Assembly (NCBI GenBank): GCA_016700015.1
Contig: CP064995.1
Span: forward strand, 480,001-512,000
Length of the DNA stretch: 32,000 nucleotides
Source: Candidatus Saccharimonadota bacterium
Lineage (GTDB): Bacteria; Patescibacteriota; Saccharimonadia; Saccharimonadales; Saccharimonadaceae
Reading direction: 5' to 3'
A model generated the notes under the pieces. The model was not told the origin of the DNA. It saw nothing but the letters and a program-made list of their open reading frames with translations, and searched no databases. This document shows positions 5,486 to 9,962 of the stretch, piece by piece (the stretch's first letter is position 1; each line of letters begins with the position of its first letter). Both the position numbers and the translations under genes were made by a program.

Positions 5486-5862
5486 TATACTGTTCGTCGG
5501 TCGGGCGCCCGACACATGGCCTGGGCCACCGACGAACAGCGCACCTTGAGGAGAGTCGCGGTACCCGCGCGTAAGGGTATCGCAACCATTGCGAAAGGCA
5601 CGACGCCTGCCGCGACTCTCCTCCCTCACACCCCGACGGAAGTAATTCTGTCGGTAAACCCTGCGGCAGTGGTGCTCCGCAGGTGGTCACGCAGGTGACC
5701 GATAGCGCACCTACACGCAGTATCCGCAGCTGCGTGGCGCCCAATGTGCAATCGATGGCGTTTCGTGCGGCCCTCGGCGCCCGGTATATCCAAGTAGCCA
5801 CTCGCTACGTTCCGGGCCCCGAGGGGCTCACTTTTCCCGCCCGAAAGCGGGTTATTTTATTT
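5486..5862 (+). ncRNA. Unassigned GC-rich, highly structured RNA (~375 nt)
   Basis: Bounded by the promoter above and an intrinsic terminator. Hand-paired helices: 5490-5501/5528-5539 (12 bp); 5548-5561/5610-5623 (14 bp) enclosing 3 hairpins; 5633-5641/5646-5654 with a GUAA loop; 5660-5666/5677-5683; 5685-5690/5695-5700; 5714-5720/5730-5736; 5770-5784/5812-5827. No SD-led ORF. Confidence 0.6.
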
Positions 5863-8800: not shown

Positions 8801-9183
8801 AAAACATTACGGTCACTGACTACAAAACCGGCAAACCCAGCACTAGCTGGAAGGGGAGCACTGACTACGAAAAAATAAAGCTACATAAATATAAGCAACA
8901 ACTCATGTTTTACCAACTTCTCGTCGGGCATTCGCGCGACTATAGCAAGTATTCCTACCTAAAAGGCATCTTGCAATTCGTCGAACCAGACCGAAGTGGG
9001 ACTATCTATACCCTTGACGTGGTGGCAACCGAAGCAGAGTTGCATGTATTTCGTCAGTTACTGAAGGCAGTTTGGCACTGTATACAAAACCTCACCCTTC
9101 CCGACATTAGTCAGTTTGAGCCGACCTACAAAGGCATACTACAGTTTGAGAAATATCTTATTGACAATTATTCCAATAACTGA
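5881..9183 (+). CDS. UvrD/PcrA/AddA-like SF1 helicase fused to a C-terminal PD-(D/E)XK (RecB-family) nuclease
   Basis: Helicase motifs AGPGTGKTE, MVDEFQDTN, VGDDDQAIYSFQGA, TDNYRS, TVHKAKGLEFDSVYI, YVAMTRAK. C-terminal nuclease motifs LDLVEI..VTDYKTGK and QQLMFYQLL. Start set to GTG 5881 (TGTATAAT 5867-5874 is 6 nt upstream). The ORF-track extension 5683-5880 lies inside the structured RNA and its terminator. Confidence 0.85.
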   Translation: MAEFEKRYKQLNKAQREAVDSIEGPLLVIAGPGTGKTELLSMRAANILQKTDTLPQNILCLTFTDSGAAAMRQRLASIIGPDAYKVAIHTFHSFGSEVINQNSEYFYHGAAFKPADELTSHEILTGIFDELDYTNPLTSKMNGEYTYLSDAKTVISELKRNGLTSDELLTIIASNDIVLDSVEKELSRIFSERPSTTMLPLLVPLAKKVAELAPQPIPSAYTPLSNTLSLSMAHAFDHAVAANSTKPLTAWRDEWLEKNDQGSFVFKDRKRHAKLRALSHIYYAYLTRMEQAGLYDFDDMVLGVIHGLETQADLAYNLQEKYHYIMVDEFQDTNLAQLRVLFALTNSPLYEGKPNIMAVGDDDQAIYSFQGAEVNNIHRFRSQYPGMRLVVLTDNYRSAKPILLHAREVIIQGEDRLESTMSDLGLVKELVALTTPKAPKVQLMPFASQVEEYSWIARDIANHIESGQPASTIAILARRHSELVAMLPYLYANNITVNYERRDDVLSMDVVIALELIASIAVHLFDRDIEAADSLLPELLAHPAFLCDPEAVWRISLVSHRNHLSWLESMATTPEFAPLQQWLVSLALAVPHTPLEQFLDMLLGMPADSTKDDVVSYRSPLYEHYFSAEQLAINPEAYLVALDALRTIRAHLRDFKPNSPLHVRDFLEYTTMYRQIGTGITSLRRQADEIAGSVHLMTVHKAKGLEFDSVYIAGAHDGAWGERVRSRSRLIGYPENLQLAPAGNTYSERLRLFYVAMTRAKQQLSISHPTVAENGSTLLPASFLTGTSLTAIEQLSIPSSTEQNAQALVAWHDYYTRATTDSMQLLLAPLLETYKLSATHLNNFIDLSRGGPGTFLLNNLLRFPQAKSANAAYGTAIHTTLQRAHAHLSATGRRKPIEDVLGDFVKEMTNQHLDSSDTELFIQKGQDSLSAFLSQYYNSFTPSQRTELGFGNQSVVCDGVRLTGSLDLVEIIDQNITVTDYKTGKPSTSWKGSTDYEKIKLHKYKQQLMFYQLLVGHSRDYSKYSYLKGILQFVEPDRSGTIYTLDVVATEAELHVFRQLLKAVWHCIQNLTLPDISQFEPTYKGILQFEKYLIDNYSNN

Positions 9184-9189
9184 TATTAT
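9161..9189 (+). promoter_or_regulatory. Promoter TTGACA-17-TATTAT embedded in the 3' end of the helicase gene
   Basis: TTGACA 9161-9166, 17-nt spacer, TATTAT 9184-9189. Confidence 0.5.
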
Positions 9190-9226
9190 ACTTATATTCT
9201 GACCAGCCGATAAAGGGGTGAGGGCT

Positions 9227-9391
9227 TTGTTCAAGTCGGATAAAGACAAGGAGCGCGAAGCGCGTGAGCGCGCAGGCGCCAAGACCTGCCCCAAATGTGG
9301 TGGCAGAGGTGGCTTCGGCCCAGGTGGCTGTGGCGCGATAAGCCACGGACACTGCACAGTGTGCAATTGCACCGGCAGGGTCAATAAGTAG
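9227..9391 (+). CDS. 54-aa Cys-rich microprotein with DnaJ-type CxxCxGxG zinc-finger motif
   Basis: Below the ORF-track cutoff, so I translated it by hand: (TTG)FKSDKDKEREARERAGAKTCPKCGGRGGFGPGGCGAISHGHCTVCNCTGRVNK*. SD-like AAAGGGGTGA at 9212-9221. An alternative in-frame GTG lies at 9218. GC-rich. Confidence 0.5.
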   Translation: MFKSDKDKEREARERAGAKTCPKCGGRGGFGPGGCGAISHGHCTVCNCTGRVNK

Positions 9392-9555
9392 ACCTCGCTC
9401 GCTGCCGACGCGGCGGGCATTCGCCCTCAGTTCGGTGTTGGCCCACCATGCTGAGGGCAGAGAGGTGCTCCTTCAAGGAGCTGGCACACTGGGCAGGGGA
9501 TGAGACCTACTGCCGTGGAACTTTGGTGCCGCTTTAGTGAGGTCGAGCTCTCTCC

Positions 9556-9604
9556 GGCCGACAGACGCGCATTCCTCCAGCGCGCCTGTCGGCCTCTTTT
9601 TATT
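9556..9604 (+). terminator. Intrinsic terminator ending the 9161 promoter unit
   Basis: GGCCGACAG (9556-9564) pairs with CTGTCGGCC (9586-9594), with an inner GCGC/GCGC pairing, then TCTTTTTATT. Confidence 0.6.
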
Positions 9605-9612
9605 GGTTGTGC

Positions 9613-9641
9613 TTGCATTACACCACCCCTCATGCTAGGAT
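9613..9641 (+). promoter_or_regulatory. Candidate promoter TTGCAT-17-TAGGAT for the tRNA-like/tRNA-Arg unit
   Basis: TTGCAT 9613-9618, 17-nt spacer, TAGGAT 9636-9641. The -10 is weak. Confidence 0.35.
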
Positions 9642-9694
9642 ACGACAGCGGTCTTGTTCGGTGTGTCTACCAGACAGACAGGCAGGACCGACCA

Positions 9695-9760
9695 GGAGAG
9701 GTAGTTTAACGACTAAGAACGGCGCACCGCGCAAACCCGGGTTTGAATCCCGGCCTCTCC
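9695..9760 (+). ncRNA. tRNA-shaped element 1 (66 nt) lacking an anticodon arm
   Basis: Acceptor GGAGAGG/CCTCTCC. D-like stem GTTT/GAAC. T-arm CCGGG-TTTGAAT-CCCGG. The anticodon arm position holds only a GCGC-ACC-GCGC mini-hairpin. Confidence 0.4.
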
Positions 9761-9764
9761 CCCC

Positions 9765-9837
9765 CGAGCCGTTAGTGTAGCAGGGCATACTCTGGAGAAC
9801 CCCAGAGAAGCGGAGTGTTCGAATCCTCCCGGCTCGA
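9765..9837 (+). ncRNA. tRNA-shaped element 2 (73 nt), non-canonical; possible degenerate tRNA
   Basis: Acceptor CGAGCCG/CGGCTCG plus discriminator A. D-loop with GGG. Anticodon stem CTCTG/CAGAG with an 8-nt loop GAGAACCC (or a 6-nt loop in the other register). The TTCGAAT T-loop sits on a stem that pairs only after a 1-nt register slip (GGAG/CTCC). Confidence 0.4.
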
Positions 9838-9841
9838 CCGC

Positions 9842-9878
9842 GGTCGCACCACTTGACCACCAAATCGGTGGTGCGACC
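9842..9878 (+). other. 11-bp perfect hairpin between tRNA-like element 2 and tRNA-Arg
   Basis: GGTCGCACCAC (9842-9852) pairs with GTGGTGCGACC (9868-9878). The loop is TTGACCACCAAATCG. Confidence 0.4.
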
Positions 9879-9888
9879 CGCAAAACCA

Positions 9889-9960
9889 GCCTCATTAGCT
9901 CAGTGGCAGAGCGCTCACGTTCTAAGTGAGAGGTCACAGGTTCGAACCCTGTATGAGGCT
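9889..9960 (+). tRNA. tRNA-Arg (anticodon TCT)
   Basis: Canonical cloverleaf: GCCTCAT/ATGAGGC acceptor, GCTC-AGTGGCA-GAGC D-arm, CTCAC-GTTCTAA-GTGAG anticodon arm, ACAGG-TTCGAAC-CCTGT T-arm. CCA is not encoded. Confidence 0.9.
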
Positions 9961-9962
9961 CC

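Follow-up and report, generated by a model that had tools for sequence, protein, structure and literature searches.

A predicted zinc-knuckle microprotein gene in a hypervariable slot between helicase and dus genes of a Saccharibacteria genome

Does the short interval between a helicase gene and dus, the gene for dihydrouridine synthase, encode a protein, an RNA or both in a Candidatus Saccharimonadota bacterium? The DNA considered here, the window, comprises 32,000 nucleotides (nt), bases 480001-512000 of a genome of 1.01 Mb in a single contig (completeness 99.3%; assembly GCA_016700015.1, contig CP064995.1). Candidatus Saccharibacteria are episymbionts with tiny genomes that occur in the human mouth and the environment, and microproteins of <60 amino acids (aa) are routinely overlooked in annotation. 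An earlier note on this DNA placed a promoter, a Shine-Dalgarno sequence, an open reading frame (ORF) for a 54-aa cysteine-rich microprotein, a hairpin-rich tail and a terminator in the interval, and every one of these elements is present where it put them. We consider it likely that the interval carries an autonomous, strongly promoted, monocistronic zinc-knuckle gene that is one allele of a hypervariable slot, and that its tail is a species-specific structured 3' untranslated region (3'UTR). Labels of the form L### denote loci and G### relatives' genomes in the comparison set.

A conserved and unannotated gene

The gene is flanked upstream by a helicase gene that ends at 9183 and encodes a 1166-aa, AddA-like protein with UvrD helicase and PD-(D/E)XK nuclease domains, and downstream by dus. 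Its 5' elements and coding sequence are as follows (positions are those of the window).

9161-9189, plus strand: sigma-70-type promoter, with TTGACA at 9161-9166, a 17-nt spacer and TATTAT at 9184-9189
9212-9221, plus strand: Shine-Dalgarno sequence AAAGGGGTGA, separated from the TTG start by 5 nt
9227-9391, plus strand: coding sequence of the predicted 54-aa zinc-knuckle microprotein, TTG start, TAG stop at 9389-9391

The frame appears in the ORF list as a 57-aa entry from GTG (9218-9391); because the homologues share a conserved N-terminus, the start is placed at TTG 9227. The 54-aa product, which contains 6 Cys and 2 His, starts with MFKSD and includes the segments CPKCGGRG, GGCGAISHGH and CTVCNCTG. 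In a six-frame tblastn search, ~13 of 104 genomes of the same genus had a homologue with an open, full-length frame and 37-45% identity, and a profile search found homologues in 24 of 401 genomes of the same family. Across a class-wide sample, 9 of 168 genomes in this family had a homologue compared with 0 of 232 in 50 other families, and 26 matches, ~13 of them full length, came from 1.84 billion cluster representatives searched exhaustively with a profile. The homologues have an MFKSED N-terminus and two CxxCxGxG-type knuckles, and where their sources give any name it is 'hypothetical protein', so that a conserved family found in one family of Candidatus Saccharibacteria has been left hypothetical or unnamed. 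A word-based protein search with the single window sequence gave no match, no paralogue of the ORF was found in its own genome and a scan of metagenome contigs found no relative.

These comparisons bear directly on an alternative raised in the earlier note, namely that the ORF was miscalled and all ~400 nt function as a non-coding RNA. The ORF region is GC-rich and has a fold of its own, and short ORFs can arise by chance. However, the protein is conserved at 35-50% identity over at least nine genera with invariant Cys and Gly residues, and changes fall in excess at third codon positions (677, 637 and 1,071 differences at positions 1, 2 and 3 among nine loci). Of the 834 aligned codon pairs in these loci that specify the same residue, 451 use different codons. 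Shine-Dalgarno spacing, start and C-terminal stop align between loci, the homologues ending at the aligned position with TAA or TAG, and DNA-level similarity disappears outside the ORF while the peptide is retained. In the only broken copy found, L036 in G009, loss of 46 nt between GCGACGGC direct repeats has cost the MFKSED gene its first CxxC and its frame, and no conserved RNA structure takes the place of the frame; an interrupted ORF with conserved helices, which the earlier note had named as the mark of a pure non-coding RNA, was not what this locus presented. With protein conservation persisting through synonymous change, a purely non-coding transcript is exceedingly improbable, and the TTG-initiated CxxCxGxG microprotein proposed earlier is borne out as a conserved gene, the tblastn search suggested for it having returned homologues, whose aligned codons show synonymous change. 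Judged by its conservation, the ORF is a genuine, unannotated gene. The broken copy in G009 also means that the gene is dispensable. At another locus, L034 (G466), the conserved FKSED frame lies behind GAAGGTGA and may start at a non-canonical codon: its aligned start is occupied by ACG instead of ATG, GTG or TTG, and two codons further upstream there is an ATT.

The promoter has the two hexamers and 16-18-nt spacer of a sigma-70 promoter; in a consensus promoter scan it matches 11 of 12 consensus positions and has TG ahead of the -10 element. Its -35 element sits in the last helicase codons and its -10 element begins one base past the helicase stop. An equivalent promoter position relative to the helicase stop is found in L018, L019, L025, L032 and L034, so that the position of the consensus promoter at the helicase 3' end is conserved across genera. 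The transcript would begin at ~9196 and carry a 30-nt leader with a near-perfect Shine-Dalgarno sequence 5 nt before TTG 9227. AAAGGGGTGA is one base off the full anti-16S complement AAGGAGGTGA, given what we take to be the 3' end of the 16S rRNA. L019 has GAGGTGA, 5 nt and TTG, a spacing equal to that in the window, and L020 and L025 have GGAGGTGA or GGAGG ahead of ATG.

A predicted zinc-knuckle family outside curated families

The product is predicted to consist of a charged N-terminal helix, MFKSDKDKEREARERA, followed by a glycine-rich zinc-knuckle module. The family consensus is MFKSEDxKRQEAA...CxxCxGTGT(F/Y/V)G(I/V)GGRG(S/A)..(S/T)..CxxCxG(T/S)G, with F2, K3 and S4 invariant in alignment A1 and C21, C24, C43, C46, G26, G28 and G50 invariant in the 15 sequences aligned. 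The window protein has the (M/L)FKS start and charged helix of the family (alignments A1 and A2), the two Cys pairs, glycine-rich spacer and Gly after each pair that characterize the 15 sequences, and its gene has the family's location, with the AddA-like helicase-nuclease gene on one side, dus on the other and a promoter at the 3' end of the helicase gene ahead of it. This unnamed MFKSED zinc-knuckle microprotein family of Saccharibacteria is defined here and is new.

Searches of curated families place the protein near two known groups and in neither. The window protein itself matched only TerY_C (E 0.016) and Anti-TRAP (E 0.15) in Pfam. Among the 15 family members, 12 matched DnaJ_CXXCXGXG (best E 1e-4), 10 matched Anti-TRAP (best E 2.7e-4) and 10 matched DUF5351, all below cut-off, and in NCBIfam RtpA matched 8 of the 15 and DnaJ models were matched too. 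For DnaJ_CXXCXGXG (PF00684; gathering cut-off 32.7 bits) the window protein gave no match at E <= 1, and it has two repeats, CPKCGGRG and CTVCNCTG, rather than four CxxCxGxG repeats with two zinc centres. Against Anti-TRAP (PF15777, NF058604; cut-off 32 bits) it scored 12.6-12.7 bits (E 0.13-0.15). In a sequence profile search of the Protein Data Bank (PDB), DnaJA3, DnaJ zinc fingers and anti-TRAP ranked top, none significantly, and its neighbours in a protein atlas are small hypothetical proteins, DUF5351 proteins and anti-TRAP-domain proteins, the last mostly viral. An AlphaFold model built from the 15-sequence alignment (predicted local distance difference test, pLDDT, 72.6) places a helix at residues 5-16 and, after it, knuckles made of short beta-hairpins, and its best Foldseek matches are the cysteine-rich domain of DnaJA2 and anti-TRAP (root-mean-square deviation (rmsd) 1.4-2.8 A over 35 residues, E ~1). 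The window protein therefore belongs to no curated family and resembles the DnaJ cysteine-rich domain and anti-TRAP below their cut-offs. The earlier note had taken CPKCGGRG for a DnaJ-type repeat; the motif is indeed there, whereas membership of the DnaJ family does not follow, every score lying below cut-off.

Anti-TRAP (RtpA; PDB 2bx9, 3lcz and 3ld0) is likewise a free-standing protein of ~53 aa with two DnaJ-type CxxCxGxG knuckles and one zinc, and gives the best superposition with the window model, within the rmsd range above. The window protein differs from it in a longer, glycine-rich inter-knuckle spacer (14-18 aa), in the MFKSED N-terminal helix and in the extra Cys and His ligands of its subtype. 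The DnaJ cysteine-rich domain (PDB 1exk and 2ctt) shares the CxxCxGxG motif, and its motifs 2 and 3, which form one zinc centre, have the spacing seen here; DnaJ has four motifs and the window protein two, and the latter has neither a J domain nor C-terminal domains. The small proteins BSD2 and ZnJ2 (PMC5818400; PDB 6ekb) consist essentially of a DnaJ-type zinc finger and are among the Foldseek matches, but they belong to plastids, have two zinc centres and act on known clients, and their sequence likeness is confined to the motif. We read the window protein as a free-standing microprotein with a single DnaJ-type zinc centre and an anti-TRAP-like architecture, outside the anti-TRAP family. Residues C21, C24, C43 and C46 probably bind one zinc, like the motif pair of one DnaJ zinc centre. 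The window subtype, shared with L018, P0010 and L037, keeps four further ligand positions (C35, H40, H/C42 and C48), which suggests a second metal site.

TRAP (PF02081) had no match in this genome, and a control search finds TRAP in Bacillus subtilis; anti-TRAP function is therefore not applicable. A complete DnaJ with its own cysteine-rich domain is encoded at genome positions 48241-48885, so the microprotein is not a split-off piece of DnaJ, and a role as stand-in for a missing DnaJ cysteine-rich domain was rejected for the same reason. Our best guess is that the protein acts as a dispensable, fast-evolving zinc-binding adaptor or inhibitor on a protein or nucleic acid. A strongly promoted accessory gene in a 1-Mb genome is likely to be relevant to the symbiont lifestyle.

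One allele of a hypervariable slot

Helicase-slot-dus synteny holds in every locus examined, and what fills the slot differs between species. The clearest case is a clade of five loci (L020, L077, L078, L080 and L081) in which identity is 72-94% over the segment made up of promoter, ~185-nt leader, Shine-Dalgarno sequence and ATG, and 75-86% over the trailer, the 200 nt past the stop, whereas ORF bodies of different cassette types are only 54-59% identical. We took ~55% identity as the floor for a global alignment of unrelated DNA. Two loci with the same cassette type, L077 and L080, have ORF bodies that are 69% identical. The products of the clade are unrelated, comprising the MFKSED type, two different CxxC...CxxC ribbons and a triple-knuckle type. 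Among 28 further slots of the same genus, 22 have an ORF of ~35-60 aa behind a strong Shine-Dalgarno sequence, no small ORF passed the filter in four and two are doubtful, lying far from the helicase stop. Some slot ORFs encode zinc ribbons and others Cys-free, charged helical peptides.

The closest relatives of the window, G020 and G041 (helicase C-terminus 65% identical), fit the same pattern. Their slot holds a different, Cys/His-rich 48-aa ORF, and what they have in common with the window is limited to the -35 block, an internal promoter block (9613-9645), the tRNA at 9889 and the dus promoter. On these alignments, the window gene is one allele of a microprotein slot that is hypervariable within one family of Candidatus Saccharibacteria. 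Its flanks are conserved, and recombination through them presumably replaces one ORF body by another between species. The earlier note recognized the gene itself and missed this status. An ORF-precise hypervariable microprotein slot is a new result of this analysis.

The arrangement recalls replacement-type slots and phage 'morons', in which a promoter-ORF-terminator unit at a fixed site varies in coding content among relatives. It differs from them in that exchange is ORF-precise, between a conserved ATG-bearing leader and a conserved trailer, and in that the cargo is always a microprotein of ~35-60 aa with no phage homologue found. A phage origin was rejected, as a family member gave no match in IMG/VR and GenBank phages gave none either; PHROG gave only weak matches, to families of unknown function. 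A fixed slot with interchangeable, unrelated microproteins is a defined place for studying small-protein diversification in reduced genomes, and its cassette alleles form a short candidate list for functional tests.

A bolder and rather doubtful proposal is that the helicase-dus region is a dedicated exchange site for ORFs of ~35-60 aa, many of them zinc knuckles or ribbons, that is, a small-effector locus in which the structured RNAs that follow are functional as well. If so, the slot effectors would perhaps modulate the AddA-like helicase-nuclease or phage or host factors, and the tRNA-like genes of most species, or the 165-nt tail here, would be working parts and not filler.

In L032 and L034, an inverted repeat brackets the microprotein ORF, with one arm in the 5' leader and the other in the 3' trailer. 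The arms form a perfect 14-nt pair in L032 (GACAGAGATAGTGA / TCACTATCTCTGTC) and are one indel apart in L034, which suggests a long-range processing or stabilizing stem at these loci.

The structured tail and terminator

The 3' part of the unit consists of the following predicted structures.

9397-9418, plus strand: tail hairpin 1, whose 9-base-pair stem GCUCGCUGC/GCGGCGGGC closes a 4-nt loop; present in both the minimum-energy and the centroid fold
9423-9458, plus strand: tail hairpin 2, a GCCCUCAGU/GCUGAGGGC stem with an inner GGUG/CACC stem
9460-9554, plus strand: tail domain 3, an irregular, extended hairpin whose closing helix is AGAGAG/CUCUCU
9556-9604, plus strand: intrinsic terminator, a 14-pair interrupted stem at 9556-9594 with a 9-nt loop, then CUCUUUUUAUU

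At the DNA level, the arms of hairpin 2 are GCCCTCAG/CTGAGGGC (9423-9430/9451-9458). Domain 3 contains GCUCC/GGAGC, GGCAC/GUGCC and GGCAG/CUGCC helices, with GGCAG/CTGCC nested in GGCAC/GGTGCC, and all of the helices named occur in both the minimum-energy and the centroid fold. The terminator has the GC-rich stem-loop and U tract of an intrinsic terminator; the consensus terminator scan does not list it, probably because its 9-nt loop exceeds the limit of 8 in that scan. The ~165 GC-rich, hairpin-rich nt that the earlier note had pointed out do fold beyond chance. For 9389-9604, the fold has z = -5.02, with none of 200 shuffles equally stable, and for the tail alone (165 nt past the stop) z = -3.1, compared with a mean z of -0.37 (standard deviation 1.14; 2% below -3) for random 165-nt windows of the genome. 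Consensus scans found no promoter or terminator between ORF and tail, so the tail would be transcribed with the ORF.

Structure of this strength could mean that the transcript has two functions, as the earlier note proposed: the ORF would be translated and the tail would also work as an RNA, whether as a 3'UTR-derived small RNA, a decoy that binds protein or a regulatory element acting in cis on the microprotein or on the tRNA-like operon that follows. The folding scores, the structured post-ORF regions of all homologous loci and the continuity of ORF and tail speak for this, and short ORFs joined to an extensive structured segment on one transcript are known from the dual-function RNAs SgrS/SgrT, RNAIII/hld and SR1/SR1P. 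Yet those RNAs differ from the window tail in having a conserved base-pairing domain and an identifiable target, and the structured part of the transcript is unconserved even in the closest relatives. The tail sequence had no homologue in 105 genomes of the same genus, nor in a DNA search of 40 relatives, no counterpart in other helicase-dus slots (14 slots and L082) and no paralogue in its own genome; tail and terminator are both absent from G020 and G041. The Rfam search that the earlier note had suggested returned only tRNAs, both at gathering thresholds and at E <= 10, and no family for the tail. No target is evident, and pairing with the Shine-Dalgarno region in the full-transcript fold is confined to a structure with a frequency of 0.0002, the centroid having none. 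A structured domain conserved independently of the ORF was not found, which leaves the dual-function transcript unsupported and, in our estimate, decidedly unlikely. As candidate identities for the tail, transfer-messenger RNA and RNase P RNA were rejected since both lie elsewhere in the genome; 6S RNA was not found anywhere in it.

At the opposite extreme, the tail might be filler, made up of decayed tRNA-like genes, structured inserts or old cassettes, with the terminator its sole working part. The hypervariability of the slot, the tRNA-like genes with inserts and the long hairpins that fill relatives' slots, and the restriction of the tail to this species agree with such an origin. Against it, no tRNA-like remnant is recognizable in the tail, a tblastn search with 33 slot ORFs gave nothing meaningful as a relic of another cassette, and the presence of a copy of the ~86-nt structured element of the tRNA-Glu and tRNA-Lys loci was rejected because a reading of those loci showed no shared motif. 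Moreover, 165 nt of strongly folding sequence are unlikely to persist unused in a streamlined 1-Mb genome, where they would serve mRNA stability at least. We think filler somewhat unlikely.

The reading we favour for the tail is a 3'UTR, structured and species-specific, that ends in the terminator; nothing indicates an independent RNA function. Together, tail and terminator would end the transcript ahead of the tRNA-like operon, and the tail probably protects the short mRNA from 3' exonucleases, no other roles being as economical as mRNA protection and insulation from that operon. Strong folding z-scores in the GC-rich intergenic cassettes of this genome are no evidence of conserved RNA.

Several points weigh against an autonomous zinc-knuckle gene with a structured 3'UTR. 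The promoter-ORF-terminator unit, its product and its transcript are predicted from sequence, as are zinc binding and the second metal site. The pLDDT of the model is moderate, the structure and profile matches all lie below significance or curated cut-offs, the second knuckle in the window is CxxCxCxG rather than CxxCxGxG, and the adaptor or inhibitor function is a guess. On the RNA side, post-ORF regions are structured in every homologous locus (z -2 to -4.3), mostly as tRNA-like genes with inserts, and a z of -3 to -5 exceeds what a plain 3'UTR would usually show; structure at the post-ORF position may have a role at the RNA level.

Neighbouring and other RNA genes

The tRNA at 9889-9962 raises one further question about the gene. 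ARAGORN assigns it the anticodon CUA, as in tRNA-Pyl, and the ORF ends in TAG, so suppression of the stop could extend the protein by 20 residues into the tail. However, the ARAGORN register requires a shifted 6-pair stem with an A.A mismatch, whereas the Infernal register has five Watson-Crick pairs and the loop GUUCUAA, giving the anticodon UCU. In addition, TAG is the commonest stop of long ORFs in the genome (197 of 427), and homologues stop at the aligned position. Recoding or suppression of TAG was rejected on these three grounds, and read-through retains hardly any probability.

The same tRNA has a U-CC-G 3' end with no encoded CCA. In G020 and G041 the orthologous tRNA retains its acceptor and T arms, with GCC as anticodon and a variable arm of 23 nt; the anticodon is therefore not conserved. 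Two tRNA-like genes precede it. The first, at 9695-9761 (Infernal 44 bits), has normal acceptor, D and T arms, its anticodon arm is replaced by GCGC-ACC-GCGC with a 3-nt loop, and the gene is absent from G020 and G041. The second, at 9765-9837, is a cloverleaf whose 'anticodon' loop has six nt (AGAACC) and whose 3' end is A-CC. It is succeeded by a hairpin of 14 pairs (9840-9881), and G020 and G041 lack both. A candidate internal promoter for the cluster, TTGCAT-17-TAGGAT at 9613-9641, lies in a block conserved with G020 and G041 and was not called by the promoter scan. In the slots of L019, L038, L040 and L002, tRNA-like genes directly 3' of the microprotein ORF carry inserts, which lie in the D loop (26-33 nt), the anticodon loop (39 nt) or the variable arm (23 nt).

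On the other side of the helicase gene, immediately 5' of its start, window positions 5500-5800 form a GC-rich stretch (0.64-0.65) that the earlier note had put forward as a separate structured-RNA candidate, so that the helicase is bracketed on both sides by GC-rich structured units. Elsewhere in the genome, an unannotated 74-nt tRNA-like element lies between tRNA-Gly and tRNA-Phe (205528-205601, minus strand), with a 7-base-pair acceptor stem, a T arm and an encoded ACCA, and without a normal anticodon arm. The only tRNA-Asn(GUU), at genome positions 913776-914058 (L088), has its anticodon loop split by a group I intron of ~227 nt (RF00028, 70.2 bits); because the intron splits the gene, ARAGORN and the tRNA model find no tRNA-Asn. 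This tRNA is uninterrupted in most relatives searched (13 of 18 genomes of the same genus match the anticodon-arm pattern), and in G018 and G009 it lies at another locus.

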